Below are positions 43,909 to 62,390 of a stretch of DNA of 64,000 bases, in pieces. Position 1 is the first letter of the stretch; the number at the start of each line of letters is the position of its first letter. Under the pieces are notes generated by a model. The model saw only the letters and a program-made list of their open reading frames with translations. It searched no databases and had not been told where the DNA came from. This DNA comes from Escherichia phage vB_EcoP_WFI101126, in sequence record NC_070991.1, one strand, 5' to 3'. Both the position numbers and the translations under genes were made by a program.

Positions 43909-44522
43909 AACGAATCCACCAACGTAATATTATAATTGCTAAGGTTTTCAGAAATGTGATGAAAGTGTTCCAGAAGTCTCATCGGTTGCTGACCGTAAGA
44001 GTCACGAGGTGCTTCCAGATCTACTTGCCCTACCAGTGCACCTTTATAATGCACCTTACCATCTGTAGGGTTGATATAAATATAACGAGTAACCAATCCT
44101 TCGAATTCAGGATTGAATAGACTGTAAACCATCTCCCCGGAGATAGCACGACCAACACCCGGAGCATTTCGAATCTTATTACCCATTAAGCCCTTTGCTC
44201 TCTGGCGAACAGGGTTAATATGAGTCCAGCTTACAGTGTTACCGTTATGGAACAGATAACCAACGTCAGGTGATTCAAGAATCAAGGTTGGGTCGAACAC
44301 TGGGATATTCATCGTAGTGTTTCGAAGATGCCCTTGCTCGTTCTTGTACCACTGCTCTACAACAAAGTACAGAGCCTGCTCTGCTTCGTGAGAGAAGTCA
44401 TCACTGCGGAAGTTACCGCTCTGCTCAACACCAATCACAAAACATGGAAGGTTGATATTACCTGCTCGTTTAGCAATCCATGTACCATTATAGTAATGAG
44501 AAAAATCAGCTACTAAGCTCAC
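43905..44522 (-). CDS. hypothetical protein (operon partner)
   Basis: 4-nt overlap with upstream gene suggests coupling. Confidence 0.4.
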   Translation of the reverse strand: MSLVADFSHYYNGTWIAKRAGNINLPCFVIGVEQSGNFRSDDFSHEAEQALYFVVEQWYKNEQGHLRNTTMNIPVFDPTLILESPDVGYLFHNGNTVSWTHINPVRQRAKGLMGNKIRNAPGVGRAISGEMVYSLFNPEFEGLVTRYIYINPTDGKVHYKGALVGQVDLEAPRDSYGQQPMRLLEHFHHISENLSNYNITLVDSL

Positions 44523-44531
44523 GATAACCTC

Positions 44532-45338
44532 TTATGCTACCTGAAGGAGTTTGATCTGCTGGTCCGCTTCTTTAACGTTGTTACCGTTAATGATTTCATG
44601 AAGCTTCTCAATCGGAAGGCGAGAGTGCAATGCCATCAGAGTGGACATGTCGCACTGCTGAACAACCTTGTCAACCTGATCGTAAACAAACTTACGGTTT
44701 TCACGATCGCTAATCCAGAAGTTAGACAGTGAACGGTATTCAATACCATAGTCTTTATAACGAATTGCAGATGCTTTACCGTAGAGTTCTTTACGGCGAG
44801 TATCTTTGTCCATAATTACTGCTGGGAGTGACAGGAAGTAGTCACACAGCACACCAAGCATCATCTGAGTTTGCAGAGTGATATCCAAAGCACCAACTAC
44901 GCCAAGATGTACGTGACCACCGGCAGTACGAAGCCCCTTGTTCTGAGAAGTTGGGGATGGGTTTTTCTGACCAGTGAAAGCGTTGAAGTCAGGAGTGCAT
45001 CCAAAGATGAACGCTGATTCATTAAAGGTCTTCATCTCTTCTTCGGTGAAGATGTGAGAGCTGACACCCGGAGCTGTTTCCATGTCCAGTTTGTTCAGGA
45101 CATTATTGGTAAGGTCAATACCACGTTGCATGTTATCGTTAAACGCTTCAAAACCACTCTGTGGGTCAATATCAAACTCAGCCAGTACATTGTCCTCTTG
45201 AAGACGAACATCCTTAGCCAGAGTGATCTTATCGTCCTTAGAACAACCTAATAGACCAGCTACAGAGGTGATGATACCGTTGCTAGTACGAACGAACATT
45301 TCAGGGTCAGAGCCGATGAGGAATTTGCGCTTAGTCAT
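44532..45338 (-). CDS. hypothetical protein, possibly second GS-fold ligase-like
   Basis: LIGSDPEMFV and GGHVHLGV loosely echo the GIELE / HVHVG motifs; weak. Confidence 0.35.
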   Translation of the reverse strand: MTKRKFLIGSDPEMFVRTSNGIITSVAGLLGCSKDDKITLAKDVRLQEDNVLAEFDIDPQSGFEAFNDNMQRGIDLTNNVLNKLDMETAPGVSSHIFTEEEMKTFNESAFIFGCTPDFNAFTGQKNPSPTSQNKGLRTAGGHVHLGVVGALDITLQTQMMLGVLCDYFLSLPAVIMDKDTRRKELYGKASAIRYKDYGIEYRSLSNFWISDRENRKFVYDQVDKVVQQCDMSTLMALHSRLPIEKLHEIINGNNVKEADQQIKLLQVA

Positions 45339-46302
45339 TGTAATACTCCACTAGTTCAGAAAAGAGAGATGAGATTGTGTTACCAACTTCTTCAGTAGTA
45401 AGGCCAGAACTTGGGCCAGTACGCTGAATTAGTCGGGCTGTAAAGTTTTGTACTGTAATGTTTTCCAACTTACTGTCTATTGCTTCACGTTTGTGACCAT
45501 GACAGTTGGACCAGAGTCTTAACCACTCTGACATTGTTTCATACTCGTCCGGGTCTTGATCTTTAGCACGAGCAAATCTTCGTAAGGCATCTTGGTTATG
45601 GTTACGAACATAACCATTCTCGTTGTCGCCAACACCGAAGGGATTTTGAACCCATACTTGCTTCGTATACTCATCAGAGTCTACAACCAAAGGAAGGAAT
45701 GCTGCTGCTGACATATTGTTATTAATAACAATAGAGGTGCTCTCGCTACTCCCATTGGCTCTTCCTCGTTGAGACCACCCACCGAAGAAGTCACGACCCA
45801 ACCCAGCTAACACTAGAGCTATGCCTATGCGTTTACGCTTCAGCCACTCTTCCTTGTCTTCAATTCCTTCTGCTAGGAAATCCATTCCACGATACTGCCC
45901 TTCCAGAATACTACGGAAAAGCATAAGTCCTGTGAAGATCTGATCTGCTGGATGCTCACGGAGGTTGACAGCAACACTATTTGCTGAAGTGATCGTAAAT
46001 ACGTCACGATAGCAAGACATGGAGTTCATAATGTCTGCTGTTTCAACCAAGTTCTTTTCAATATCAGATGCAACATGACCATGAAAAGAATGAGTCCAGT
46101 AATTCAACATCTCCAGTTGCAAGTTGATATCGCGGTTGAAGCTACGATAGCGCCCTTCTTCCGTGATAACTTCACCATTAATGTCATTTACACACTGGCC
46201 TTGCATGTAGTTGTGGATACCGAAGCACCCACGACCTAAGAACTTCTGTTCCCCTAAATCTTGTTGAAGATTAAAAGGTACGATCGTTGTGGAGATTGAC
46301 AT
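45331..46302 (-). CDS. hypothetical protein (operon partner)
   Basis: 8-nt overlap with downstream gene. Confidence 0.4.
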   Translation of the reverse strand: MSISTTIVPFNLQQDLGEQKFLGRGCFGIHNYMQGQCVNDINGEVITEEGRYRSFNRDINLQLEMLNYWTHSFHGHVASDIEKNLVETADIMNSMSCYRDVFTITSANSVAVNLREHPADQIFTGLMLFRSILEGQYRGMDFLAEGIEDKEEWLKRKRIGIALVLAGLGRDFFGGWSQRGRANGSSESTSIVINNNMSAAAFLPLVVDSDEYTKQVWVQNPFGVGDNENGYVRNHNQDALRRFARAKDQDPDEYETMSEWLRLWSNCHGHKREAIDSKLENITVQNFTARLIQRTGPSSGLTTEEVGNTISSLFSELVEYYND

Positions 46303-49183: not shown

Positions 49184-49257
49184 AGGGGAAATTCCTTAAA
49201 AAGTTATGGCTGCGTAGAGGGAATTCCCTACGCAAATTGGGACGCCCACAGAGAGGC

Positions 49258-49275
49258 GTCATAGTACTAAAAGGA
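49258..49275. repeat. 18-bp conserved motif GCGTCATAGTACTAAAAG (copy 1)
   Basis: Identical 18-mer at 56743-56760; contains 8-bp palindrome TAGTACTA; followed by hairpin 49208-49229. Confidence 0.6.
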
Positions 49276-49417
49276 GGAGAGAAGAGGGATTATTTAGCTA
49301 CCTTTTTCTGTCCATTTACGAACCAGATAATTGAACCGTCAGGCTGTCGTTGACCGAAGCCTTTTTGGTTAATCATATCGTCATAAGAATATGCTTTACG
49401 TCTCATTTGTTTTCCTA

Positions 49418-49630
49418 TTAACAGGCGTAGTTACGTAGGTATACATGCCGATCTCTCAGCACCTCACCAAGAAAAGATTTGTAATCTTCTGTTATGCCAG
49501 AATAAAACTTCTCTTTAGCTTCTTCTTCGGACACTTTCCACAACTTAGAAAGTTGGTTGAACAAGATTTCCTCTGAGGAAAACAGTAGATAGGCATTCTG
49601 TATGAGTATGTCTTTCTCTTCTTGAGTCAT
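49418..49630 (-). CDS. hypothetical protein
   Basis: ORF track. Confidence 0.3.
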   Translation of the reverse strand: MTQEEKDILIQNAYLLFSSEEILFNQLSKLWKVSEEEAKEKFYSGITEDYKSFLGEVLRDRHVYLRNYAC

Positions 49631-49639
49631 AGACCACCC

Positions 49640-49885
49640 TTACATTAGAGTTAAGATGATCTCTGCTTTGGCAAACTTCTCACCAACTTCAAGAGTGTCA
49701 GAAACAGGACGAGGTTCGCCTGTGCCTAAATTAACTGCTCTGCGATATCCACCAGATAGAGGCATCATCAAATAAATGACCTGACTGTCATCATCTTTTA
49801 AAGTAAAGATGTCAGCGGTTGACAGATCTTTAACAAAGAGTTTCTTTTCTTCTTTGTTGTGAACCTTGATATGTATCGTGCTCAT
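49640..49885 (-). CDS. small beta-rich protein, multicopy family member
   Basis: L..DL...D.F...........NLGTG...P pattern shared with family. Confidence 0.4.
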   Translation of the reverse strand: MSTIHIKVHNKEEKKLFVKDLSTADIFTLKDDDSQVIYLMMPLSGGYRRAVNLGTGEPRPVSDTLEVGEKFAKAEIILTLM

Positions 49886-49887
49886 AC

Positions 49888-50139
49888 CTACTCCTGAACC
49901 ACAGACATACGAATCATCTCTACCTGATCATCAAGACTTTTAACAGATAGTACACCTGTAAAAAGGTTTACCACAGGAACCCAACCACTAGCTATACGGA
50001 TGTTACCAGAAGCATTTTCAACCCTCATATAATATTGAGGAGAAGCACTTCCGTTCTGAACTACGAAGGGGTTTCCGGGAATGATTGTTTCCAATCGTAC
50101 CGTATTATCCTTTTTCTTAGGGATGATTTTCATTAGCAA
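49888..50139 (-). CDS. small beta-rich protein, multicopy family member
   Basis: Family pattern. Confidence 0.4.
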   Translation of the reverse strand: MLMKIIPKKKDNTVRLETIIPGNPFVVQNGSASPQYYMRVENASGNIRIASGWVPVVNLFTGVLSVKSLDDQVEMIRMSVVQE

Positions 50140-50208
50140 TCACTCACTAAAAGTTCTGCCGACACAGGAATAACTTGGCACCAGCTAGACGGTGCTGTTA
50201 CGTTACCA

Positions 50209-50379
50209 TCAGATAGACGGAGAGAGTACTCGATCAGAGTTAACGGTTACATTAGGACTTTCAGATACAGTCCCTTTGACATAGAGAGTAGCACTCTCGG
50301 GGAATTTAAATACTGCTCCGCTGGGAAGGGTGTTGAGATCAACCTTGGTCACTTCTTCTTTCTTGTGAGTAATCTTCAT
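50209..50379 (-). CDS. small beta-rich protein, multicopy family member (56 aa)
   Basis: KVDLNTLPSGAVFKF; ATG overlaps stop of upstream gene (ATGA); below track cutoff. Confidence 0.35.
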   Translation of the reverse strand: MKITHKKEEVTKVDLNTLPSGAVFKFPESATLYVKGTVSESPNVTVNSDRVLSPSI

Positions 50380-50630
50380 TTAGAATCCTTAATAACGTTA
50401 GCTTCAACCTTAACAGGAATAACAGAGATGCCCTCAACGGGGCCACTTAAGTGTCCATCTTCCAGTCTGACACACACGACTCGATCTCGTGCAACTTCTA
50501 CCCAATTAGTAGATGCCGCAGTACAGACCATATGAATTGGACCGTTCTCTTCCAGCCGGAAGGTAGCGCCCTTCTTCAGAGTGTGGAGTTTCACAGTCTT
50601 GATAGTTTTGTTCAATTCGTTAACTTTCAT
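50376..50630 (-). CDS. small beta-rich protein, multicopy family member
   Basis: VKLHTLKKGATFRL... family pattern. Confidence 0.4.
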   Translation of the reverse strand: MKVNELNKTIKTVKLHTLKKGATFRLEENGPIHMVCTAASTNWVEVARDRVVCVRLEDGHLSGPVEGISVIPVKVEANVIKDSK

Positions 50631-50638
50631 ATTGATTC

Positions 50639-50950
50639 CTATTTAAGTTTCAGGCTAATATTAAGGTGCATACATGCCCTGTTCTGTACAGCAGCATAGC
50701 TTCTACCGAGCATGTCAGCCATTCTCTGAATAGGCATGAACCCAGCATTACGGATAAGGAACTGATCTTCTTCTTCAGACCACTTAACTCGGATTGAAGC
50801 TCTTGATATTCCGAACTTAGTGCAAGCTGTGTTAACAGCATTCTCCGTTACATTCATAATCTGAGCAACTTCTTTAACCGAGTACTCTTTGATTAATCTC
50901 CGAAGATTTTCAATCTGCATCGGAGTCCATATAGTTCTTCGCGCTTTCAT
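50639..50950 (-). CDS. DNA-binding protein with two GcrA-like HTH motifs
   Basis: Two repeats of W.......L..L........A......NAV (WTPMQIENLRRL...; WSEEEDQFLIRN...). Confidence 0.45.
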   Translation of the reverse strand: MKARRTIWTPMQIENLRRLIKEYSVKEVAQIMNVTENAVNTACTKFGISRASIRVKWSEEEDQFLIRNAGFMPIQRMADMLGRSYAAVQNRACMHLNISLKLK

Positions 50951-51430
50951 ATACCCTCCAATTAAAAAGAAGAAAACTATCAGGGGAGTACACTAGCTCT
51001 GGGCCACGCTGTAGACATCGGCCTACCTTCCACAGCTAATCAGCTAATGTACTCTCCTAATAGTTTATGAATAGGGGGAGGGGACGAATCCTCCCATATC
51101 CTATTAATTAATATTGCATGTAAGATCTAACAATCGGTTGCCTTTGTAGGAATAAGCGTTATGCTAATCCAGCACTAAACTCCCGCCCCCTTAGTGGGCT
51201 GGGTTATTAAAGGGTAACGCCCTTATGGGCTAGTTACATGAATGTTAGTTTGATAGGAGATCTGAAGTCCTATCTCAAAGGACTCTCGTAAGAATCCTTC
51301 ACGATATTACTTATTCAACTCTCGTCGGCTATCTCTCCAAGCCAACCAAGTGTAGATTTTCAACTCTTCAAAATCTTCTGGAGAGAATAGATATTCTTTG
51401 AAGGTGTCACTAAACCACTCTAAAAATTCT

Positions 51431-51631
51431 TCAGTCATAAATACCTCTTGCTTTATAGGTGGTACAGATTAATGTTGCATGTCTTTGGTTATACAGTTCG
51501 AAGTAACGAGGCTTGCTCCAGTCTCTGTCTCTGGTAAAGGATTGAAGAATGAAGTGTCTGTCACATCCAAGCCATTCAGAAACATCCATCGCTAGACGTA
51601 TAGGAGAACCTCTGAATTCCCTCCGCTCCAT
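51431..51631 (-). CDS. hypothetical protein
   Basis: ORF track. Confidence 0.3.
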   Translation of the reverse strand: MERREFRGSPIRLAMDVSEWLGCDRHFILQSFTRDRDWSKPRYFELYNQRHATLICTTYKARGIYD

Positions 51632-51642
51632 TTAAACCTCTC

Positions 51643-51816
51643 TTAGCAAGACTGGTCACATGGCTGATCACCACATGTTTTACAAATAACTGGTGAGTAA
51701 CTACAGGCAGGATACACTGACACACCATCCCATGTCTCACACCCACAGTCAGGACATGTGCCGTTAGATTCCATGTCATCATCGTCGTCTATTTCACCGC
51801 CACCAAAACAACTCAT
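51643..51816 (-). CDS. small Cys-rich (zinc-binding?) protein
   Basis: AAGGAG SD 6 nt before ATG; 12 Cys in 57 aa; preferred over overlapping 51576..51782. Confidence 0.4.
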   Translation of the reverse strand: MSCFGGGEIDDDDDMESNGTCPDCGCETWDGVSVYPACSYSPVICKTCGDQPCDQSC

Positions 51817-51825
51817 ACAGGCTCC

Positions 51826-52047
51826 TTAGTAAACTAAACCTATAGCCTTTGCATCGGGCTGAGGGACTACCTTTGCGCTAGGGCGATAGCCATCCACTGA
51901 ACCATTCCAAAGGTTGACACAGGTAATATACCCATCGTCTATGATGTCTGTTTTAATCCAGAAGTGTTTATCATGACCAAAGATACTTCCGTTTGGCAGC
52001 GTGGACAGTTCAGCGGTCTTAAGTGACTGCTTAGAGTCTAGTTTCAT
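51826..52047 (-). CDS. small beta-rich protein, multicopy family member
   Basis: SLKTAELSTLPNGSIF...VNLWNG...VVPQPD. Confidence 0.4.
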   Translation of the reverse strand: MKLDSKQSLKTAELSTLPNGSIFGHDKHFWIKTDIIDDGYITCVNLWNGSVDGYRPSAKVVPQPDAKAIGLVY

Positions 52048-52054
52048 AATAACC

Positions 52055-52303
52055 TCAATTATCGTAGCATGTATTCCAATACATGTAGTTAACGTACGTT
52101 CTCGGTTTGATTCCGTACATGATGAAGTGAGTCTTCTTGATCCTTTCCTTCAGCGTGTAATAAAGGCCATCACTGAAGTTACCAATCTTTACTTGGAAGC
52201 GTAAGGAGCGAGCATCCATTCGAAGCATCCACAGCATCTGATTATGACTCTGATTACTCATTGTATCGAGAAGCTTCTTTGTATTCCAATAATGAGCTGT
52301 CAT
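52055..52303 (-). CDS. hypothetical protein
   Basis: ORF track, internal Met start. Confidence 0.3.
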   Translation of the reverse strand: MTAHYWNTKKLLDTMSNQSHNQMLWMLRMDARSLRFQVKIGNFSDGLYYTLKERIKKTHFIMYGIKPRTYVNYMYWNTCYDN

Positions 52304-52304
52304 A

Positions 52305-52586
52305 TCACCACTCCTTACCGGTTGTAGTAGTAGAACCACCACACCACTGCGCATCTGACAAGGTTTTAGTTTCCTCATCTACTGCTGCACCGTTCAGGCA
52401 TGAGATACCACTGTAACGCATATCAATTTCACCAGAAGGAATCTTCTCACCTTTGTGCCAGCGAGAAACACAAACACCTTCCACTGATACTGCACACCAT
52501 CCATCAGGACGGCTCTGTACGCAGCCTGTAAGGGCTATACAGACAAGGAAGATACAGATTAAGGATATTACACCACCCCAACTCAT
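52305..52586 (-). CDS. lipoprotein
   Basis: Signal peptide with LTGC lipobox (MSWGGVISLICIFLVCIALTGC). Confidence 0.55.
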   Translation of the reverse strand: MSWGGVISLICIFLVCIALTGCVQSRPDGWCAVSVEGVCVSRWHKGEKIPSGEIDMRYSGISCLNGAAVDEETKTLSDAQWCGGSTTTTGKEW

Positions 52587-52605
52587 AACTACCTCCTATT
52601 TGATG

Positions 52606-52681
52606 TGGTGCGCCCTACAGGACTCGAACCTGTAACCAATAGCTTAGAAGGCTACTGCTCTATCCATTGAGCTAAGAGCGC
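52606..52681 (-). tRNA. tRNA-Arg (anticodon UCU), CCA encoded
   Basis: 76 nt; 7-bp acceptor stem with one G-U, D-arm GCTC/GAGC, anticodon loop CTTCTAA, T-arm ACAGG-TTCGAGT-CCTGT, 3' ACCA. Confidence 0.85.
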
Positions 52682-52689
52682 GGAATTAT

Positions 52690-52854
52690 TTAGATCATAT
52701 CTCGCTTAGTGATATGACCACATGTTTTACATCGAAGTATGTAACGAGTTCCGGTACTTTCCAGTTTACCAAACTCATTGTATGTATTTAAACTAACCGC
52801 TTTGATTGTCTCCCACTCATGGAGATGGAAGAGATATTTAAACCACTTGAACAT
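52690..52854 (-). CDS. small hypothetical protein (CxxC)
   Basis: Compact ORF adjacent to tRNA. Confidence 0.25.
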   Translation of the reverse strand: MFKWFKYLFHLHEWETIKAVSLNTYNEFGKLESTGTRYILRCKTCGHITKRDMI

Positions 52855-52856
52855 AA

Positions 52857-53090
52857 TTATACCACCTCAACGAGAGATGTTTTCCACCCAAACAGAGGTC
52901 CATTATCATTAAGATAAACAGCCCCTCCAGTCTCGAATGGAGTTCCATAAGGGAGTGCCCAAGCATACCCACGAATTTCTGGCTTATGAGTAAACCCATA
53001 CACTTCGCCGTTGCTATCAGTTGCTAAATATCTTATAGAGTTACCTATTTTAATAACTTCACCAAAATATTTAACCTCTTTAGTCTTCAT
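52857..53090 (-). CDS. small protein (paralog pair with 53098..53349)
   Basis: RYLATDSNGEVYGF vs RYIAIDKMGYVWAW. Confidence 0.35.
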   Translation of the reverse strand: MKTKEVKYFGEVIKIGNSIRYLATDSNGEVYGFTHKPEIRGYAWALPYGTPFETGGAVYLNDNGPLFGWKTSLVEVV

Positions 53091-53097
53091 ACCAACC

Positions 53098-53349
53098 TCA
53101 AGCACAAGCAGGGAGTGTGATGATTTTATACTGACCTTCAAACTCTCCAAATAAACCTAAGAATGTAGGACTGTAAGTACCAGTACAAACAAACTCATCA
53201 AACAGTTCGTTATAGCTAGGCTTAATCTTCCAAGCCCATACATAACCCATCTTGTCAATTGCAATGTAACGAGTGTTCAGAGGAACAGTCATCATCACAC
53301 CGTCAACTTCGATCACTTTAGTGATTGGTGCAGCTTGGAAGTTTTTCAT
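53098..53349 (-). CDS. small protein (paralog pair)
   Basis: See partner. Confidence 0.35.
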   Translation of the reverse strand: MKNFQAAPITKVIEVDGVMMTVPLNTRYIAIDKMGYVWAWKIKPSYNELFDEFVCTGTYSPTFLGLFGEFEGQYKIITLPACA

Positions 53350-53522
53350 ACTTTACCTTTGATAAAAATATCATTACCACAGACACAGCATGAACGAACA
53401 ACAGTAGCGCCACGCTGAACGATACGAACCTCTTCCTTAACCAGATTAACACGAGCACCACAGCAAGGAGAGTTAACATAAGAGTAACCAGCTTGCGTAT
53501 TCTTGATTGTTTGCTTAGACAT
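53346..53522 (-). CDS. small zinc-ribbon protein
   Basis: CC...n...CC.C pattern; ATG overlaps upstream stop. Confidence 0.3.
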   Translation of the reverse strand: MSKQTIKNTQAGYSYVNSPCCGARVNLVKEEVRIVQRGATVVRSCCVCGNDIFIKGKV

Positions 53523-53523
53523 T

Positions 53524-53871
53524 TTATTCGAGATCTCTCAGTTGTTCAGCCATTTGTTCGCACTTGTTGATGCAGAACGCTTCTGTTCTTGGAACCCCGT
53601 TAGGGTTGAACCGTGTCTTATCACCTGCATGGGCACAATCAAATCCGATTGTATCTAAACCACCCATCTCTTCAAGGGTATCTTGCCACGTGACACCACC
53701 ATGAACGTTCACATAACAAACAACCTTTTCCTCTCCATTATATCCGGTGAAGTTTTTATGTTTCAAACTATCTGGTAACTCTACATACCCACATAAGTGG
53801 GAATTGTTCATGTGCATAATCACAGCACGAAGGCCCGATTTAGTTTCCCAACTTTTAACTATGCGTCTCAT
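53524..53871 (-). CDS. hypothetical protein
   Basis: ORF track; conserved-looking HGGVTW...IGFDCAHAGD. Confidence 0.35.
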   Translation of the reverse strand: MRRIVKSWETKSGLRAVIMHMNNSHLCGYVELPDSLKHKNFTGYNGEEKVVCYVNVHGGVTWQDTLEEMGGLDTIGFDCAHAGDKTRFNPNGVPRTEAFCINKCEQMAEQLRDLE

Positions 53872-53913
53872 ATAAGCACCTCTTGTTAGTTTAAGTAAGA
53901 GTTGTCCCTTAAT

Positions 53914-53943
53914 TAAAACAACAAAGGCCGCCCGAAGGCAGCC
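53914..53943 (-). terminator. intrinsic terminator (conserved GCCGCCCGAAGGCAGC hairpin)
   Basis: Near-identical to hairpin at 23103; T-rich tract on - strand. Confidence 0.45.
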
Positions 53944-53948
53944 TCTCT

Positions 53949-54158
53949 TTATTGACTAACACCACGAATCAGATGATTCTGTAGCATTTCGTCTTCTGCA
54001 TTATATAGGAATGCAAACATCAACTCCTTAGCCACATCTCTTGAGCAATTAAGACACTTAGAGATTTGCGTTAGTTGCATGTTGCGTTCAGTGTGTTCCA
54101 TCAAGGCAATGCGAATGATCTCTCGCATACCTATCACATGGGTTGTCTTAACCGGCAT
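53949..54158 (-). CDS. hypothetical protein (possible HTH)
   Basis: ORF track, internal Met start. Confidence 0.3.
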   Translation of the reverse strand: MPVKTTHVIGMREIIRIALMEHTERNMQLTQISKCLNCSRDVAKELMFAFLYNAEDEMLQNHLIRGVSQ

Positions 54159-54288
54159 AGGTCCAATTTCCTTGCTTGTTACGGATGGCTGACATTGCAT
54201 GAAGCCAGAAGCCTTCCAGTTTCAGAGCACCATTAGCTACTACATCCATACGTTCAGGGCGGTTCATACGTTTGGTTGATACTTTCAT
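54148..54288 (-). CDS. small hypothetical protein
   Basis: 46 aa ORF; stop overlaps next start. Confidence 0.2.
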   Translation of the reverse strand: MKVSTKRMNRPERMDVVANGALKLEGFWLHAMSAIRNKQGNWTYAG

Positions 54289-54515
54289 ACCTATCTCTCT
54301 TTGTTAGTGGAGGCATTATTGCCAGTTGATATAAGGGATAGCCCTAGTCAGTAGGCTAATCCTGACCGCGTACTCATTGCCGACCTTCTCTGCCTAAGAG
54401 TTCAGGTTCTAGAGCTATCTCTTATTCCAACTGGTGAAGACTCCCTACCCCTAGGAAGTCTCCTGAATCCCAAACCAATACGTACCCCTACATATCGGAA
54501 AGTCTTTCGAAAATT

Positions 54516-54640
54516 AACAGGTTTTAGTCTAACACCGGATGTTCGAGCAAGCTCTCCCTAGCGGTGTGGCATATGCCTGAATTAATAAGTTAATGAGGAA
54601 CACCCTCACATAGCCCTCTGATAAACACAAGAGCTATAAG
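54516..54640. repeat. conserved intergenic element, copy B
   Basis: See copy A; hairpin GAGCaaGCTC here versus GAGGattgttCCTC in copy A. Confidence 0.6.
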
Positions 54641-54646
54641 TCGGTG

Positions 54647-54958
54647 TTACTTAACTGCTTCCATCATCTTACGAACGTTAGCCACACCTTTCTGAATCAA
54701 AGGCAGGAACTCATCACCCAAACTAGAAGATAGAAGACTCAAACTTCCCGTCTTAATGCCACGACATGCTGACTCTACTTCTTCCGGCAACAATGTCATA
54801 TTAAACCACGGAGATTTAATCTCTACTGTAAATCCGGGGTTGTACCGGCTCTCGCTATGATTAAACTCCAGATAAGTGACACCGGAGCAGTGTTTCATTT
54901 GAGCACGAATTGTTACAGTGGGCTTACACATCACAAAAGAAGAAACAGACATAATCAC
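54647..54958 (-). CDS. hypothetical protein
   Basis: ORF track. Confidence 0.35.
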   Translation of the reverse strand: MIMSVSSFVMCKPTVTIRAQMKHCSGVTYLEFNHSESRYNPGFTVEIKSPWFNMTLLPEEVESACRGIKTGSLSLLSSSLGDEFLPLIQKGVANVRKMMEAVK

Positions 54959-54963
54959 TTACC

Positions 54964-55182
54964 TTACTTTTGAGTCACATGTAGATCAGGGCGAGGTGTA
55001 ACAGTAGTGCCGCCCTTAAAAAGACCAACATAACCAGTACGAAGATTGGCTGCTTTATGTGAACCATTATTTGCTACCTCTTCAAGCAGCAACCAGAACC
55101 GGCTATCATAAAAGAAAACCGACCCACTTTCTAGATCACATATTTTTGAAAACTTAAGAGGTTTACCTTCATTGATTTCCAT
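54964..55182 (-). CDS. small beta-rich protein, multicopy family member
   Basis: PLKFSKICDLESGSVFF...AANLRTG. Confidence 0.4.
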   Translation of the reverse strand: MEINEGKPLKFSKICDLESGSVFFYDSRFWLLLEEVANNGSHKAANLRTGYVGLFKGGTTVTPRPDLHVTQK

Positions 55183-55437
55183 TTACTTACCCTTGTTGGT
55201 AATCACTGCATCAGGAATAAGGACTACAGGAATATCTGAAGCGAGCTTCATAACCTGATTGATGTTTAAATTTAGCACCACACAACCGGCACTAGGCTTA
55301 GCTTCGGTTACATGTGGAGTGAAGAGTTGCACAACCATGTAATAACTTATACCGGTGTTTTTAACTTGGAATACATCACCCAGTTTCAGATCACTCAACT
55401 TAAGTTCTGGATTCTTCCACTCAAGATCAATCTTCAT
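55183..55437 (-). CDS. small beta-rich protein, multicopy family member
   Basis: LKLSDLKLGDVFQV...VVLNLNINQV...VVLIPD. Confidence 0.4.
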   Translation of the reverse strand: MKIDLEWKNPELKLSDLKLGDVFQVKNTGISYYMVVQLFTPHVTEAKPSAGCVVLNLNINQVMKLASDIPVVLIPDAVITNKGK

Positions 55438-55633
55438 CTTTAACCTCTACGTTGGTTATGTGGAGATCATTACGAACTTGGCAGACTTCATCACGCTTAA
55501 TAGGGATGAGTTTTCCAGTGACCACATCAACGCAGTTCACATAATTGTCTGCATATAAAGAATCGGTTCGAATATAAAGGAACCCTTTAGACTCAAAGAG
55601 AACCCCCGGCTTCATGTTATTTAAGCGAAGCAT
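55427..55633 (-). CDS. small beta-rich protein, multicopy family member
   Basis: MLRLNNMKPGVLFESKGFLYIRTD. Confidence 0.35.
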   Translation of the reverse strand: MLRLNNMKPGVLFESKGFLYIRTDSLYADNYVNCVDVVTGKLIPIKRDEVCQVRNDLHITNVEVKDED

Positions 55634-55652
55634 TGTATGGTTAGGTTTAATA

Positions 55653-55949
55653 TTAACCTTCACTGTTAATCTCCTGCTGCTTAGCAATAGCCACTCGCAA
55701 ATCTTCATTAGCACGAGTGAGGCGCAATACTTCATGATTGAGGCTCTGAAGACGCTTGTTTCTGTCTTCAACTTGCATAATAAGATCGTTAAGTGTTACT
55801 TTAACTTTCTCATTATACATCTCATCCACTCGGACTAGAGATTTATACATTCTTTCCCAGCTTGCTGCTTTGTTTCTGAGAACAATAAATCCTATAACGC
55901 TGATAGTTAAACAGAGTACAAAAAGGAATTTATATACTTCTAAAGTCAT
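55653..55949 (-). CDS. membrane-anchored coiled-coil protein
   Basis: N-terminal TM helix then heptad-rich region. Confidence 0.35.
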   Translation of the reverse strand: MTLEVYKFLFVLCLTISVIGFIVLRNKAASWERMYKSLVRVDEMYNEKVKVTLNDLIMQVEDRNKRLQSLNHEVLRLTRANEDLRVAIAKQQEINSEG

Positions 55950-56149
55950 ATCATTTTACCCTTTATCAGAGATTAAAAGTAATATTATTTAAGTAAGTTA
56001 TATTTAGTAAACTTATTTTCTAAGAAATTTTCAAAGGGTCTATATACAGAGCATTACCCATAGTCCCAGAATACTACCATCTTTTTCAATAAATTTACTA
56101 AGTGGTTGGTTTATAAAGGAATTTAGTTTGTCAAATCTGGCACTAGTGA

Positions 56150-56539
56150 TTATTCCCTAGAGCTATTATCGAACACTAAATCACCACAATACATAGGATT
56201 GGCATACCATTTTGGCACCCCTTCGCTCTTACTCTGAAAGTAAGTCCCACTATACAGCGGAACATAATTCTTCTTAAGGGCACGTTTAGCCAGCCGCTCG
56301 CTTTCTCCAATGGCTTGCTTAGTCATCGGATTTTTATCACGAATCAGCTTTACATAACGTTTATAAGGTTTCTCCTGTTTTAATAGTACCGGAATCCACT
56401 CAAACTGGTTCTTTTGTCTTATCACCTGTTCAGCGGTCAGTTTTCGTTGAGCCATTCTATTTATTACGGTATCCGCAACTAAAGCCTTACATGCGGTTGG
56501 CTGATTCCCTGCCTCATAATAAATAGTCAATGTCAACAT
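56150..56539 (-). CDS. cell-wall hydrolase, CwlJ/SleB-like (tentative)
   Basis: LTIYYEAGNQ...ALVADTVINR resembles Hydrolase_2 core. Confidence 0.4.
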   Translation of the reverse strand: MLTLTIYYEAGNQPTACKALVADTVINRMAQRKLTAEQVIRQKNQFEWIPVLLKQEKPYKRYVKLIRDKNPMTKQAIGESERLAKRALKKNYVPLYSGTYFQSKSEGVPKWYANPMYCGDLVFDNSSRE

Positions 56540-56588
56540 TAGCTGGGCCGTTGTTATCAGAACTTGCTACCTCCTGTTTTACGGGCAT

Positions 56589-56614
56589 AAAAAAGCCCCA
56601 GCCGTAGCCGGGGC
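56589..56614 (-). terminator. intrinsic terminator
   Basis: GCCCCGGCTACGGCTGGGGC hairpin plus T6 on - strand. Confidence 0.5.
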
Positions 56615-56677
56615 AAACCTGAAAGCAACACATGACCGTTGCTATAAATACACTCGCAAATGCACTTACAGCAACGC

Positions 56678-56699
56678 AAAAAGCCGCCCAAAGGCGGCT
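56678..56699 (-). terminator. intrinsic terminator
   Basis: AGCCGCC-caaa-GGCGGCT perfect hairpin plus TTTT on - strand. Confidence 0.5.
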
Positions 56700-56742
56700 A
56701 TGCGGAAGCTTCAAATGGGGAGAGTACGACGCGACAGAAAGA

Positions 56743-56760
56743 GCGTCATAGTACTAAAAG
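56743..56760. repeat. 18-bp conserved motif GCGTCATAGTACTAAAAG (copy 2)
   Basis: Identical to 49258-49275. Confidence 0.6.
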
Positions 56761-56936
56761 AGGGGGGTAGTATTCCATAGAGATCTTCTCTCTCTTTCCC
56801 TATTTTCAGCCTCTAATTCTTTCTTTAGTAATTCGTTTTCTTCTTGCAAGGATGCTACCAGATGAACCAGAACATCAACTACTGCATCACCTTGCCGCAT
56901 CTCTCTGACTTTATTTAGAATCTCTGAATAAATCAT
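56754..56936 (-). CDS. small coiled-coil protein
   Basis: ORF track. Confidence 0.3.
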   Translation of the reverse strand: MIYSEILNKVREMRQGDAVVDVLVHLVASLQEENELLKKELEAENRERERRSLWNTTPLF

Positions 56937-57376
56937 TTTACCCTCGCCTCTTTGATGGGGTCAATGTATTTCTCAACGCCCCATTTATGTTTACTATCTG
57001 CGTAGAAAACATCAGGCGCACACTGACTTGTCTTAGGGAATGCTTGCGGGTCTTTCGTGCTACCTTTAAACTTCTGCTTACCACGGGTGCGACCATTACA
57101 GAAGATTTCTAACTTCTTCTCTTCTTCTGTTTTAGCGCCCCCGCTCTGTAACAAAGAACGTTTATGATCAGCTAACAACAACGCATCAGCACGATGGACA
57201 CGATGGCCTACACGTTTTGCCACACTAGAAGGAATATGAGATTCAGCTTCAGCCTTTGCAGCACGACGTTTTAAACTACGCTTGCTAACGTGGTTGGTTG
57301 CTTTTGGTTTCTCTTTTTCCAGTTCAGAGATAGAGAAACAGCGCCCGCCTTTCATGCTGATTTTAGGTTTAGCCAT
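56933..57376 (-). CDS. basic protein, possible HNH-like nuclease (tentative)
   Basis: LADHKRSLLQSGG resembles DHIxPxSxGG of His-Me finger enzymes; weak. Confidence 0.3.
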   Translation of the reverse strand: MAKPKISMKGGRCFSISELEKEKPKATNHVSKRSLKRRAAKAEAESHIPSSVAKRVGHRVHRADALLLADHKRSLLQSGGAKTEEEKKLEIFCNGRTRGKQKFKGSTKDPQAFPKTSQCAPDVFYADSKHKWGVEKYIDPIKEARVK

Positions 57377-57445
57377 TATCTTATTCCTTTCAGTGACAAG
57401 TTATATCGTGCAAGCCCATCGTGGGGATAGGCTTAACCAAATAAC

Positions 57446-57655
57446 TCAATCGAGTAAACTAAACGATTTCCAACTACGTAGAAGGATTGTACCGTCATCC
57501 ATAGTTACACACAACTTTAGTAGTTTCTTATTGGCACTACTCACCGTTGTAATTCGTCCGGTTGTGCATTTACCTTTGTTGCTGTAAAGATATACAACAC
57601 GACGACCTAACAGTCGGGAGGGAGCTTTCTTAAACTCTGAAATATTAGTTATCAT
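57446..57655 (-). CDS. hypothetical protein
   Basis: ORF track. Confidence 0.3.
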   Translation of the reverse strand: MITNISEFKKAPSRLLGRRVVYLYSNKGKCTTGRITTVSSANKKLLKLCVTMDDGTILLRSWKSFSLLD

Positions 57656-57876
57656 AATGCTTGATACCTTTGGATGTGTTCAATACGGGTAGATTGAGCA
57701 AAGGACGCTTTAACAGCCATTTTTCTAACTTCTTCTTTACGCTGGTTAGCGTGTACAGTATCCCAATGATTATCATCACGTTGGCGCTGTAATATCTTAC
57801 TACATTTGCGATGGTTTCCCGTGCTGCGATGTTTCTCACAAATAGGACACTTACCAAAATTGCTACTGAATATCAT
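57652..57876 (-). CDS. Cys/His-rich small protein
   Basis: CPICEKHRSTGNHRKC. Confidence 0.35.
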   Translation of the reverse strand: MIFSSNFGKCPICEKHRSTGNHRKCSKILQRQRDDNHWDTVHANQRKEEVRKMAVKASFAQSTRIEHIQRYQAL

Positions 57877-58100
57877 TTTCTTAATCCCAGCTTTCTTAAG
57901 ATACGGCCTAACGTTGTTTCTTGCGTGATAATATAGCTGATCGCTTCACGTTCCAACGTTTCAATCTTCATTGGCGACGGATACCATTCACCGGTAATAA
58001 CACATTTACATTCAACGCCATACTTTTTAGATAGGCGGTAATGTTGACCGTTGACAAGATTTCTATAGATCGTGGTATGTGTAATTAACATGATCGTCAC
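57873..58100 (-). CDS. hypothetical protein
   Basis: ORF track. Confidence 0.3.
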   Translation of the reverse strand: MTIMLITHTTIYRNLVNGQHYRLSKKYGVECKCVITGEWYPSPMKIETLEREAISYIITQETTLGRILRKLGLRK

Positions 58101-58144
58101 CTTTGATTAGATTCTTTGATTAATGCACTGAATCAATGCACTGA

Positions 58145-58179
58145 TAAAAGAAAAGGCGCTACCCGTTAAGATAGCGCCT
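58145..58179 (-). terminator. intrinsic terminator
   Basis: 8-bp perfect stem AGGCGCTA/TAGCGCCT plus T-rich tract on - strand. Confidence 0.55.
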
Positions 58180-58202
58180 TATGTTTATTCGAATTGTCTT
58201 AC

Positions 58203-59111
58203 TTATGCCGCCTGACGTGCCGCCATAATCTCAGCCGCTTTACGCAACACTTCTTCCTCTTCTTCTTTCGCAGCTTGTTCGGTACGGGTAGCAACCGTTG
58301 AAGAGATACGACCGCGCAGTCCTTCTAACTTCTCCTGCATAGCTGCGATGGTCTTTTCCATTTCATCAGCGTATGAATCGAGGGATTCTAATTCCTTGCT
58401 TGATGCGTTCATCAGATAATCGTCAGAGATCGCTACCGTCGAGGCCGTTACTTTCTTGATGAGCGAGTCAAAGGATTTTTTAACCTTGCCGACTTCTTCA
58501 CTTAAGGCGATAGTGTTATCGCTAGTAGCGCCGTTGCGCTCATCAGCCAGCAATTTGGCTTCGATACGGATTGCATTCAAGCGTTCAACTAAAGCGTAAA
58601 TATCCTGATTAAAATCTTCCTTGTTTTTCGCCGGTATTTGCAGGTGTGCCGCCACGTTGTCATTGCAACCTTTGTAGAAGTTAGGATTATCCACTTCAAT
58701 TGCACGACCTAAAGCAAAGTTTTCAAAAGCGTTTGACCAACGGGCGCGGTTTTGTTCCATTTTGGCCTTAATTTGCGCTTCTTTCGCGTCTTCTTTAGCT
58801 TTCGCCTCACCTTCCAGATTAATCCACTTTTTACGACCGTTCGCCGCATCAGTGTTAAACTTGATAGGAGTTAAGAAAGTAATTGCAGTGGCAATAACAT
58901 CCATATCACGGAAACGTTCAGTTAACAAGAAGTCAACCGCCGCCTGCAATACGTCCAGCTTCTTACCATTACTGCGGAAGTGCTGTAAGTGTCCTAACAG
59001 GAAGTTAGAAACATCTTGTTTGATCGCCGCGTTATTACTGCGAATGTTGTTAGCCAGAGCATTAAAACCGGATTCGTTAACCAGAGTAAAGATTTTAGCC
59101 ATGATATTCAC
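58203..59111 (-). CDS. early protein with coiled-coil C-terminus, function unknown
   Basis: First ORF downstream of the long promoter-rich leader. Confidence 0.4.
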   Translation of the reverse strand: MNIMAKIFTLVNESGFNALANNIRSNNAAIKQDVSNFLLGHLQHFRSNGKKLDVLQAAVDFLLTERFRDMDVIATAITFLTPIKFNTDAANGRKKWINLEGEAKAKEDAKEAQIKAKMEQNRARWSNAFENFALGRAIEVDNPNFYKGCNDNVAAHLQIPAKNKEDFNQDIYALVERLNAIRIEAKLLADERNGATSDNTIALSEEVGKVKKSFDSLIKKVTASTVAISDDYLMNASSKELESLDSYADEMEKTIAAMQEKLEGLRGRISSTVATRTEQAAKEEEEEVLRKAAEIMAARQAA

Positions 59112-60022
59112 CTTTCAATTGTAAGGGCGCTATTGCCCCGCTCTCTATGAGCTTGTTTAAGTCACTATTAACTTAACTATAACCACTCGTTGTTAAGTGG
59201 TTATAGGTAAGCGGGGCGGTCTTATCAGGAGTTAACCTTGCCGCCCCTTATCCGTGATGTTTCATCTGGTATCTTTAATTAGTCGCTATAAACGAAGCCG
59301 ACCTGATAGCGATGATCAATCATCACAATAAGGCTATGCGTCCGACTCTATTTAATTACATTACTGTAACCGTCGGCAATATCGTCCACTTTGTTTTCGC
59401 TCCCGCTTATCCTTTTATATCAGCTCTCTATCGCTAGTCATCGCCCACTACGGGATACTATTGCGAAAGAGTCACTAACCGCCTATTATTCCGGCGTTTT
59501 ATATCTTTCAGCAGGTTTACTACATAACCCGACTATGTACTTTCATCTTATAATGAATCTCAAGCCGTTCACATCGTAAACGTTCGCATTAAACCTTATT
59601 GTTAAATAGCAATTTGCCACTTTTTAACCACTCACCGCCGCTCTCAATTGAGCGTTATTTCTTCGGGCTTGCCTACCCTGATTAACTTCTTTCACCGTAG
59701 CACCTTGTTAGCGATGACCGCCGCTACCCTTAACCGTGGGCGATTAGCTTAAGTCTTTGCGTATACTCGATGAATCCGTTTATCAGTGGTGACGTTTCCA
59801 GCAAGGGATTGTAAGGCTGTTTTCTCTGATAGTTTAGAGAGTCTTACATCGTTTTGTCTGGTATGTTATCCGATGGTTATTATCATCTAACATATTCAAC
59901 CGATATAGGAGAATGTTTAAATTATTAAAGAGCGGTAAATCTATCAGTGTGCTTTCTCACACTATGCAACTGTTAGCCGTTGTTACGCTTTCCTTAAGCG
60001 GTGATTTGCTTAAGTGATGCTC

Positions 60023-60051
60023 ATTATGAATCATGTTGTTTTCGCTGTCAA
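60023..60051 (-). promoter_or_regulatory. sigma70-type early promoter P1 (TTGACA-17-CATAAT)
   Basis: Perfect -35 hexamer, 17-nt spacer, 5/6 -10. Confidence 0.5.
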
Positions 60052-60654
60052 CCGCTTTTTAATCTTTTTCGTCGTTCCCGCTATTGGGAGGATATATCAA
60101 TCAGCTTTATTTGATTGAAGATTAAGCGGTGATGCTTAACTTATGATTCATATTGTTAAAGAGCGTTAGCCTTTTAGAGTGTCTGCTAATCACTGTCACA
60201 TTTAAGGCTTACTTATTCATTAACGGGCCGCCTACACCCGAACTACTCGCTGCACTATGTGCCACCTTTCCCGCGATACGTTGATTTGGGAACTAGTTAG
60301 CGATGTTTTGCTAACTTGTGGTTAGTATGGACTACTTTAACCACGTTTGCAAGCTCTTTTTATCATCTTCTTTTAATTCCTTTCCCTTATCTCGCGTGAA
60401 TCTTTGCGAAAGGGCAAGATGATAAGTCTGATTTGTCTTTTAGGAATCTAGTGCGCTTTCAAGCATTAATCTTTTGAAAGTATCGAACAAATAAGGCTTA
60501 TTGATATTGCTTATTGTCCGCCTGCGTCACGTATGAATCAGGAATCAATTCTACCGATTAACTGAGCGCCTTATAGTAATGACGTCGCCGCCACCCGTAA
60601 GACAAATCATATTTTTAAAGAGCGGGATATTTCACGTCATCGCTGACTATGCTC

Positions 60655-60683
60655 ACTATATATCAGGCTTTTTCCGGTGTCAA
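60655..60683 (-). promoter_or_regulatory. sigma70-type early promoter P2 (TTGACA-17-TATAGT)
   Basis: Perfect -35, 17-nt spacer, 5/6 -10. Confidence 0.55.
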
Positions 60684-60858
60684 TACTCTTTTTAAGAATA
60701 TTTTCACTTTCTAGCCTGATTTTTAAAGAGCGTAGCACTTTCATTGTGCGTCTTACTGTCGGTATTCCTACCGCTCCCCGTTGAAGCCTTTTACCGTGAT
60801 GCTAATCACCTATCGAGGAGTTTTTACTACTTGTTACTTACTGCTTACTACGGGATTC

Positions 60859-60886
60859 ATATTACTATACAGGAAAACCCTGTCAA
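60859..60886 (-). promoter_or_regulatory. sigma70-type early promoter P3 (TTGACA-16-TAATAT)
   Basis: Perfect -35; spacer resembles P4. Confidence 0.45.
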
Positions 60887-61084
60887 TACCCTTTTTTCAA
60901 ATTATTTTATATCTTACTGTTTTATAAAGGAATTTATTTTAGGGAGGATAGGAACTACAAAGAAATCAGGGGATAGAGGAACGGGCGCGCGTGATACATC
61001 ATAGGAAACGGCTTGTAAAGCAATAATAAGCGGCCTATAACGCATCACAACGAGCTAAAAGGGAGTAAGGCATACAATCACCCT

Positions 61085-61114
61085 ATAAAATAGAAAAGCC
61101 TCGCATAGAGGCTT
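61085..61114 (-). terminator. intrinsic terminator
   Basis: AAGCCTC-gcata-GAGGCTT hairpin plus T-rich tract on - strand. Confidence 0.5.
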
Positions 61115-61189
61115 ATAGGAAGGATTAGAGAATCAGATAGATTATGACCATAGGCATGACTACGGCACAATAAAGAAGGAAGACTAATC

Positions 61190-61555
61190 CTATGGATTTA
61201 AGCATTGACCGTTACCGGATTCAATTTCATTCATGGACTCATCAAAGAGTGTCAACGATGAGCGCATCAAGTGATCTATCGTAATTTGTTTACCGGTATT
61301 TTCGTTTACCAGTAGAATAATTTTACTATCTGATTGCACATGATCGAAATCATTTACATGCAAAATAATAACTTTAGGTGACTTTTTACCAGTCGAATAA
61401 TTTTCGATCAAATAGGTGCACTGTAAACCGTCAACCGTAGCAGGGGAGAATGTTGCAGCTTTAACGCTACCCATAGATGACAGCAGGACACCTAACAGGA
61501 GAACAACCAGAAAGAAGCCTACAAATACTTTCACTACAAATTTGATAATACCCAT
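61190..61555 (-). CDS. secreted/membrane early protein
   Basis: Hydrophobic signal-like N-terminus. Confidence 0.4.
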   Translation of the reverse strand: MGIIKFVVKVFVGFFLVVLLLGVLLSSMGSVKAATFSPATVDGLQCTYLIENYSTGKKSPKVIILHVNDFDHVQSDSKIILLVNENTGKQITIDHLMRSSLTLFDESMNEIESGNGQCLNP

Positions 61556-61647
61556 AATGATAAACCTTTAGTTAGAGAATATAAGAATAGAGCATATCAG
61601 CGATGAATAACGCCACGGTAACAACGAACAAGCAACGCCAAAAATAA

Positions 61648-61950
61648 TCATTCTTCTTCATTGCTATCCTCGCCAAAAAATGCTACGCTAATCTGTTCCA
61701 CTTCTTCCAGCGACAACAAAATCCCACGTTGGGCTAAATACTTCCCAACGGTTATATAATCTTGCACCAAACAAACAACGGGAAAGCGGATAGTTTGAAT
61801 CTCACCCTTAGAAAGAAAAGACAAATAACCAGCGTCGACTGATTCATCAAAGGATAACGTAACGCCACCGTAATTATGCGTATCAATTAACGCAATAGTT
61901 TCATTCCCCATAACGTTTCCAATCCTTATTGTATTTGAGAATAGACACAT
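61648..61950 (-). CDS. hypothetical early protein
   Basis: ORF track. Confidence 0.3.
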   Translation of the reverse strand: MCLFSNTIRIGNVMGNETIALIDTHNYGGVTLSFDESVDAGYLSFLSKGEIQTIRFPVVCLVQDYITVGKYLAQRGILLSLEEVEQISVAFFGEDSNEEE

Positions 61951-62122
61951 ACTCAGGGCCGGACAAAGTGCCGCCTAAGTAAGTAACCGTCATTCGTGCG
62001 CTAAACTCTGAAAGGTTGCACAATACGGAAAGGGGTACTCGACTATCACCGCGACTACTTGCAACTAACACAACATTATCAAAGATAGTCACGCTATCGT
62101 TAACAATAACGCCATTAACCAT
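61901..62122 (-). CDS. hypothetical early protein
   Basis: ORF track. Confidence 0.3.
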   Translation of the reverse strand: MVNGVIVNDSVTIFDNVVLVASSRGDSRVPLSVLCNLSEFSARMTVTYLGGTLSGPEYVSILKYNKDWKRYGE

Positions 62123-62366
62123 GTATTAATCCCTCACTTAACAGGTTAGCCAGTGACAAATCACCGTCAATATAGATTGACTTGAAATCATCGCGGTTAA
62201 TATCAATACGCACCAATTGAAGCCATTTTTTGGCCTCATTAAAGCTCATGGAACAAAAAGCAACAACGGGAACTATAATCTGACCATCGCGCATATTAAA
62301 CTCGATAGATTGCCCACCAACAAAACAAGAAAAACCATTAGATAATCTGACTTCTTTGATAGCCAT
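62115..62366 (-). CDS. hypothetical early protein
   Basis: ORF track. Confidence 0.3.
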   Translation of the reverse strand: MAIKEVRLSNGFSCFVGGQSIEFNMRDGQIIVPVVAFCSMSFNEAKKWLQLVRIDINRDDFKSIYIDGDLSLANLLSEGLIHG

Positions 62367-62390
62367 TTTTACACTCCCAAAATAGGTTAT

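Follow-up and report, generated by a model that had tools for sequence, protein, structure and literature searches.

A conserved 10-base site matching the phage tf nick consensus in Kuravirus genomes, and a small HNH-like protein as its candidate partner

Nick sites of described phages and the repeated 18-mer

Site-specific nicks in virion DNA have been recognized in phage T5 since the 1960s, in phiKMV-like phages since 2009, and in Pseudomonas putida phage tf since 2012, and we know of no function assigned to them in any phage that has them. Here we compare with these systems a duplicated 18-mer in the early region of Escherichia phage vB_EcoP_WFI101126 (accession no. NC_070991.1), a phiEco32-like Kuravirus with a full genome of ~77 kb, of which a stretch of 64,000 nucleotides (nt) was analyzed (hereinafter, the window; 97% identical to Escherichia phage Ptacy1532). 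The comparison leads us to propose, with a probability of roughly 0.6 (this and the grades given below in words are judgments, not computed values), that the two copies are two of three conserved tf-type nick sites, TACT/RTGACG (R = A or G), in Kuravirus.

In phage tf, localized single-chain interruptions occur at 5'-TACT/RTGMC-3', cut after base 4 (PMC3517423). Run-off sequencing, primer extension, and ligase-reversible denaturing gels located 14 such nicks, which share one strand; they are ligatable and occur in >90% of the molecules (Glukhov et al. 2012; PMC3517423). The form TACTATGAC predominates in phages LUZ24, PaP3, and MR299-2 (PMC3517423), and nanopore sequencing of Rembedalsseter detected breaks associated with WACTRTGAC, a motif that is enriched in 60 related phages (PMC11780129). 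The nicks of T5/BF23 and of the phiKMV-like phages are likewise sequence defined, strand specific, and ligatable, and nick-less T5 mutants are viable (PMC3517423; PMC11780129). However, their sites, R/GCGCRGG in T5 and CGACxxxxxCCTA/CTCCGG in phiKMV (quoted in PMC3517423), are unrelated to the Kuravirus consensus, as are the phage lineages themselves.

A search of the window recovered exactly two copies of the 18-mer, GCGTCATAGTACTAAAAG, both on the + strand, at 49256 to 49273 (copy 1) and 56743 to 56760 (copy 2); the first-pass annotation had placed the latter correctly and the former 2 nt off, at 49258 to 49275. Both fall within the leftward-transcribed early region, and since the genes around them are all on the - strand, the sense reading is CTTTTAGTACTATGACGC, that is, CTTTTAG-TACTATGACG-C. 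On this strand, the core TACTATGACG occupies 49266 to 49257 in copy 1, between the homologs of phi32_94 and phi32_93, and 56753 to 56744 in copy 2, downstream of the phi32_120 homolog and after an extra 60-amino-acid (aa) open reading frame (ORF); the predicted nicks are at 49263/49262 and 56750/56749, respectively. The earlier observation that both copies sit at the 3' ends of small genes was borne out: copy 2 overlaps the TAG stop codon of the 60-aa ORF (56754 to 56936), and copy 1 begins 16 nt past the TAA of a 38-aa ORF (49290 to 49406; the phi32_94 homolog). The duplication is also beyond chance, as had been claimed, with 0.06 matches to GCGTCATAGTACTAAAAG expected at ≤3 mismatches and three matches reached in 0 of 100 shuffles; the third such match, with 3 mismatches, lies on the opposite strand at 13108 to 13125. 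The supposed extension of the similarity to 24 nt is weak and amounts, past the 18 identical bases, merely to a common purine/pyrimidine bias. The eight bases of the 18-mer that flank the core are genus specific and probably reflect shared ancestry, gene conversion between the copies, or a weak extended preference.

The invariant 10-mer and its third copy

Both loci were compared in 10 phages of three genera (Kuravirus, Suseptimavirus, and Nieuwekanaalvirus), and the motif is kept at both syntenic positions in every relative examined. This retention sustains the more general view of the first-pass annotation, that the repeat is nonrandom, functional, and likely a recognition site, although its specific readings did not stand. 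The sole invariant stretch is TACTRTGACG. Its 5' flank takes the forms ttttag, ttttagc, ttttaac, tttcaac, ggtcaac, ttgcaac, and ttgcagc, and its 3' flank is pyrimidine-rich only, so that relatives present, for instance, ...CAAC-TACTGTGACG and ...TAGC-TACTATGACG. Both copies are present in phiEco32, where copy 2 is TACTGTGACG, a single A-to-G change that stays within the nick consensus (R = G). The palindrome TAGTACTA reported earlier is present in the window but is not conserved, becoming TAGCTACTA, CAACTACTG, or CAGCTACTG in relatives; the conserved unit is instead an asymmetric 10-mer that occurs also within a coding region (at 13115), which argues against the operator that had been suggested.

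This third copy, TACTGTGACG, lies at 13115 to 13124 on the + strand, which is the sense strand of the late gene that contains it (11190 to 15656; the phi32_26 homolog), and its predicted nick is at 13118/13119. In seven phages of the three genera, TACTGTGACGGAAGA is invariant at this position, with the surrounding DNA 72 to 78% identical, and the codon before the site varies (AGT, ACT, or GCT) with its wobble T always kept. The invariance of TACTGTGACGGAAGA, together with a changed amino acid alongside a retained wobble T, indicates that it is the DNA, and not the protein, that is under constraint. A search of the genome to the left of the window for TACTRTGACG recovered no further site, which gives three sites per genome. 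This count compares with 0.15 expected, and three were reached in 2 of 1,000 resamples (P ~0.002). Each of the three is on the strand that is sense for the transcription around it; they are not all on one DNA strand. An overrepresented 11-mer, TGAAGTTAAAA, was set aside as unrelated to the motif, being found in coding DNA or in a local duplication.

All three window sites match 5'-TACT/RTGMC-3' (TACTATGAC twice and TACTGTGAC once), and the variants of the relatives remain within this consensus. In the tf sequence, a G follows 10 of the 12 TACTRTGAC sites, versus 0.09 expected, and the extended 10-mer is therefore the same in tf and Kuravirus. Since the 10-mer is identical to a known phage nick site, we take it to be recognized by a protein at the DNA level, and that protein is most probably a nicking enzyme, not a repressor. 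The likeness to the tf/LUZ24 type comprises the identical core, including A or G at position 5 and the preferred trailing G, and the strand specificity of the sites; tf and Kuravirus further have in common a syntenic replication/amidoligase module and a small HNH-like protein (see below). Some tf sites also fall exactly at gene boundaries, and in some of these the RTG is a real start codon. The two groups differ in density, with three sites per 77 kb in Kuravirus versus 9 to 14 per 45 kb in tf/LUZ24-type phages, and in strand, one Kuravirus site being on the opposite DNA strand, following transcription, whereas all 14 tf sites are on one strand. Assembly starts near copy 2 (in NJ01, MN03, PGN6866, PE006, and FS2B) are scattered and 100 to 660 bp off and are therefore uninformative as an indirect sign of nicks. 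Small ORFs of 28 and 12 codons that open at the internal ATG/GTG of the motif were rejected as products of the site; they have no Shine-Dalgarno sequence, their length and sequence are not kept, and that of phiEco32 copy 2 has five codons.

The same comparisons bear on two other accounts of the repeat. It is barely credible that it is a functionless relic, namely, a short boundary sequence duplicated by recombination or module exchange between early-gene cassettes. The early region is indeed mosaic beside copy 2 (gene 119 in phiEco32; the extra 60-aa ORF in the window and in phage Paul), and the two copies of a genome tend toward the same flank type; yet a neutral relic would not hold exactly TACTRTGACG in three genera amid diverging flanks, nor would it match a site defined by experiment in another group of phages or turn up again within coding DNA that is under synonymous constraint.

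A promoter is very improbable, whether a weak sigma-70 promoter with TACTAT as its -10 element or a single-element promoter for the phage-modified RNA polymerase. What speaks for it is that TACTRT retains A2 and T6 of the -10 hexamer and that the phage sigma factor gp36 uses a single 9-bp element, tAATGTAtA (PMC8948821), with which TACTGTGAC agrees at 5 of 9 positions, the maximum for the motif. The motif also resembles the gp36 promoters in being a short single element with few copies per genome in the same phage. However, -35 and extended -10 elements are absent, the upstream sequence is not kept between copies or genera, a promoter scan made no call at either intergenic site, a promoter at copy 2 would fire into terminators 44 and 130 nt away, and the late-gene copy is within a coding region. 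A gp36 promoter in particular was rejected: the sequence is different, and two of the sites follow genes 94 and 120 and the third is within gene 26, whereas gp36-dependent promoters lie upstream of genes 6, 13, 26, 40, 58, and 68 (PMC4331800).

A small HNH-like protein as candidate partner of the site

The candidate recognizer or nickase of TACTRTGACG is a basic HNH-like protein of 104 aa encoded at 27043 to 27357 on the - strand (the homolog of phi32_58, which is behind the gp36-dependent promoter P58). It has the top identity (61%) among the proteins common to tf and the window. In tf, its homolog is an unannotated TTG-initiated ORF (16129 to 16416, +), in place of which GenBank has an overlapping ORF in another frame (tf_29; 16115 to 16429), and a literature search recovered no paper that names the tf-type nicking enzyme. 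The window, tf, Photobacterium phage PhCF1.2, and Cronobacter phage GAP52 have only 11 proteins in common, among which the HNH-like protein is the best conserved (61 to 68% identity) and the sole plausible sequence-specific nuclease. The syntenic module of tf and the window consists of a COOH-NH2 ligase, an amidoligase, a glutamine amidotransferase, an ATP-grasp enzyme, a primase-helicase, a separate 3'-5' exonuclease, a DNA polymerase, and a 5'-3' exonuclease. The first four of these form a cluster that is syntenic in all four groups (window, 39055 to 45350, -; tf, 7590 to 13147; PhCF1.2, 7521 to 12382; GAP52, 55549 to 62170) and that might conceivably have to do with the modification of DNA or protein.

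Searches with tblastn recovered the HNH-like protein in 250 phage records (from phages of Escherichia, Pseudomonas, Aeromonas, Proteus, Salmonella, Cronobacter, Vibrio, and Photobacterium). On its own, the window protein matches only phrog_4590, a family with no assigned function, and has no match in Pfam, but when 37 homologs were compared with Pfam, 25 matched HNH and 12 matched HNH_3; a sequence search of the PDB with the family profile gave no match. An AlphaFold model (mean predicted local distance difference test score [pLDDT], 68; core, 75 to 82) contains a beta-beta-alpha unit and is laid out as predicted for an HNH (beta-beta-alpha-metal) fold: the catalytic His closes strand 1, and both the loop and the helix contain Asn residues. 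The window protein keeps the core residues His57, Asn67, Asn71, and Asn80. The top structural neighbors are HNH nicking endonucleases (I-HmuI, the Gme HNH protein from Geobacter, and phage HNH nickases), which the family resembles in its predicted beta-beta-alpha core with His, Asn, and Asn and in its Pfam HNH matches. It is unlike them in its far smaller size (~100 aa), in the absence of zinc-binding Cys pairs, in a unique invariant basic N-terminal segment, RGETGVGSKSGDAQRHRARR, and in a gene that has no intron or intein association and does not adjoin a terminase gene; in the Kuravirus clade, there is in addition a Gly at the metal-ligand position (see below).

The motif and the protein co-occur in several lineages. 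Phage PhCF1.2 encodes the protein and has six TACTRTGAC sites, all on the + strand, of which five have the trailing G (0.21 expected). Around the gene in IMG/VR, LUZ24-like contigs (uncultivated virus genomes) carry three to eight sites, confined to one strand, per 20 kb; the metagenomic contig L046, which is low in GC, carries five on one strand, and L057, a contig of 100 kb that encodes a protein with 81% identity to that of the window, has two in 20 kb. In GAP52 (loci L053 and L054), which has a phiEco32-like architecture, de novo k-mer counting gave a strand-asymmetric motif, (a)cTACGGTGACG, of which we found no report in the literature. Its TACGGTGACG differs from the tf nick site by one base. 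The early/middle arm has eight copies of this variant on its - strand, and the late arm has a single copy on its + strand, versus ~0.15 expected; one TACTATGACG is also found on the - strand of the early/middle arm. This layout mirrors that of Kuravirus. The proteins of GAP52 and of another locus with the TACGG-type site (L056) share changes in the N-terminal segment that is invariant in the others (GA.SKD..RHKARR versus GS.SGDA.RHRARR), and these sequences hint that the HNH-like protein and its site covary.

Hairpins beside the intergenic sites and the weighing of the readings

Hairpins follow both intergenic copies, as the first-pass annotation had reported, but canonical terminators follow copy 2 alone, the copy-1 hairpin being noncanonical. 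On the - strand, the intrinsic terminator T1 (56682 to 56699) is 44 nt downstream of copy 2, as a neighboring element outside the motif, and T2 (56595 to 56614), for which there is a terminator annotation in phages Paul and 4E8, is 130 nt downstream. Between them is a long hairpin of ~18 bp, CGUUGCUGUAAGUGCAUU...AGUGUAUUUAUAGCAACG (56637 to 56676, -; -42.5 kcal/mol for 56580 to 56680, z = -4.7), which is kept in Kuravirus relatives and whose size fits an RNase III substrate or a strong regulatory structure. A bulged GC-rich 10-bp hairpin, GCGTAGGGAATTCCCTCTACGC (49213 to 49234, -), lies 22 nt downstream of copy 1; it was left unscored as a terminator in the scan because its T-run is 9 nt away. 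The motif itself lacks the GC-rich stem with a direct T-run of an intrinsic terminator: the terminators stand off from it at the above-mentioned distances, the copy-1 hairpin has no adjacent T-run, and the coding copy has neither. Thus, the terminator module proposed earlier resolves into separate neighboring elements, and the coding-region copy has no terminator.

These structures would also suit an RNA-level element of the early transcripts, that is, an RNase processing site or a part of a terminator or antiterminator that works with the downstream hairpins, but we consider this decidedly improbable. In its favor, transcription reads both intergenic copies in the sense direction, stable structures (z = -4.2 to -4.8) lie downstream of them, many copies have a GCGTC farther on that is able to base pair with the GACGC of the motif, and the copy-2 string CGCTCTTT resembles boxA. 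However, the GACGC/GCGTC stem is missing or only 3 to 4 bp long in phiEco32, NJ01, and Paul (copy 1) and in KBNP1711 and 4E8 (copy 2), and compensatory change in it is not assessable because its 5' arm is fixed by the motif. The boxA-like string is found neither in copy 1 nor in other genera, the copy-1 hairpin is absent at that locus in Suseptimavirus, and the same 10-mer is kept inside a coding region and elsewhere is scattered through genes on one DNA strand. A search of Rfam gave no match at the motif, only a tRNA-Arg and subthreshold matches on the terminator pair. Such an RNase processing or terminator role was among those first put forward for the repeat.

Several further features of these regions were noted. 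In most of the phages, the intergenic sites overlap the 5' arm of the small inverted repeat GACGC...GCGTC; as a conserved unit, this mini-hairpin was rejected, since it is missing in several relatives. Directly after the coding site is another inverted repeat, GGAAGA-aaa-TCTTCC (13124 to 13138, +), and relatives keep one there with a changed sequence (GGAAG...CTTCC in SU7). In phiEco32 (locus L001, 9415 to 10212, compared with window positions 56540 to 56742), a gene for a 265-aa "tail protein/adhesin," phi32_119, is just downstream of copy 2, and the 5' part of this gene, as annotated, overlaps the terminator-pair region; the window and phage Paul are without it and have instead the extra 60-aa ORF upstream of the motif. 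These differences place the copy-2 site at a mosaic junction. Toward the early genome end, a cluster of near-consensus sigma-70 promoters (60023 to 63336, -) comprises TTGACA-16/17-TATAGT at 63336 and 60683, TTGACA-17-CATAAT at 60051, and TTGACA-16-TAATAT at 60886, and is followed by a terminator at 58180 to 58153; the phage presumably has in these its strong early promoters. The early region also contains a tRNA-Arg gene (52609 to 52681, -; 72 bits in Rfam), which in phage Paul is adjoined by an HNH homing endonuclease gene.

We read the 18-mer copies as nick sites because their core is identical to a nick site that has been mapped, because it is conserved, and because motif and protein occur together in several lineages; from this we infer that Kuravirus DNA is nicked. 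Several observations weigh against this. The 9-mer TACTRTGAC is not above chance in the window (three sites versus 1.6 to 1.9 expected), and the case therefore rests on the 10-mer, its conservation, and the cross-lineage comparison. The tf nicks were mapped physically, whereas those of Kuravirus are predicted from sequence, and a literature search recovered no paper that links Kuravirus or phiEco32-like phages to nicks. The Kuravirus sites are fixed in position across genera, with two of them intergenic and beside terminators, whereas LUZ24-like sites are scattered in coding DNA (PMC11780129); the placement of these two just upstream of hairpins or terminators, kept in three genera, is unexplained by pure nicking. 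Two contigs of 90 to 97 kb that encode the protein (L032 and L033) have no site within ±10 kb of its gene, and the link between protein and motif is only correlative because these phages share 10 other proteins too. Finally, at the metal-ligand position, where other homologs have D-H or E-H (H-H in the divergent protein of L046) and relatives at 78 to 81% identity keep D-H, the window protein and the entire Escherichia coli phiEco32-like clade have V-G-H (D56G), alongside a replacement of NLRVRS by NLRVES (R75E). The lost Asp is a metal ligand in characterized HNH enzymes (D74 of I-HmuI and D839 of Cas9), and catalysis may therefore be weakened or lost.

The HNH-like protein might, accordingly, bind without cleavage, as a sequence-specific DNA binder (a roadblock, a regulator, or a boundary mark) at the three fixed sites, which we regard as rather unlikely. 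D56G and R75E occur solely in the clade with just three fixed sites, in which the protein is under strong purifying selection (85 to 98% identity), and the siting of the two intergenic copies before hairpins or terminators in three genera, close upstream of the terminators that bound early-gene blocks, would fit such a role. Yet the HNH core residues His57, Asn67, Asn71, and Asn80 are retained, Asp54 is present on the same strand face and could substitute for the lost Asp, and the third site lies midway through late coding DNA, with no regulatory context. That the 10-mer is the cognate DNA site of the HNH-like protein family, be it cut or uncut, appears quite likely to us. Whether the phi32_58-family protein is the nickase of the tf- and LUZ24-type phages, with a specificity that coevolves with its N-terminal segment, is close to an even bet; we infer this identity from the same co-occurrence.

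If the sites are nicked, the mechanism could run as follows. The asymmetric 10-bp site 5'-TACT/RTGACG-3' would be presented on the sense strand of transcription, twice in early intergenic DNA and once in late gene 26. The small basic HNH (beta-beta-alpha-metal) protein, made from the gp36-dependent P58 in the replication module (27043 to 27357), would recognize the 10-mer in duplex DNA and cut the motif strand only. Progeny and virion DNA would then carry strand-specific interruptions at 49263/49262 and 56750/56749 on the - strand and at 13118/13119 on the + strand. The intergenic sites lie ~9% and ~19% of the way from the early genome end, each just upstream of terminators. One distinctly unlikely scenario is that, in the E. 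coli clade, an ancestral multisite nicking system was pared down to three fixed sites and an Asp-less HNH protein; the sites would then be programmed marks that border the early-gene blocks, in the form of either stable protein-DNA complexes or rare single-turnover nicks, and such marks could gate stepwise genome entry or the early-to-middle transcription switch.

If the proposal holds, the tf-type system would extend from Pseudomonas podophages to the phiEco32 group of E. coli, a tractable host in which there would be three mutable sites, and would reach Cronobacter and Photobacterium phages as well. It would also put a name to one small candidate nickase, which is unannotated in tf and hypothetical elsewhere, and the natural specificity variant (TACT/RTGACG versus TACGGTGACG) could reveal how an HNH protein of 100 aa reads 10 bp. 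Nicks at known positions affect nanopore and ligation-based sequencing, the prediction of termini, and the engineering of coliphages that are therapeutic candidates.

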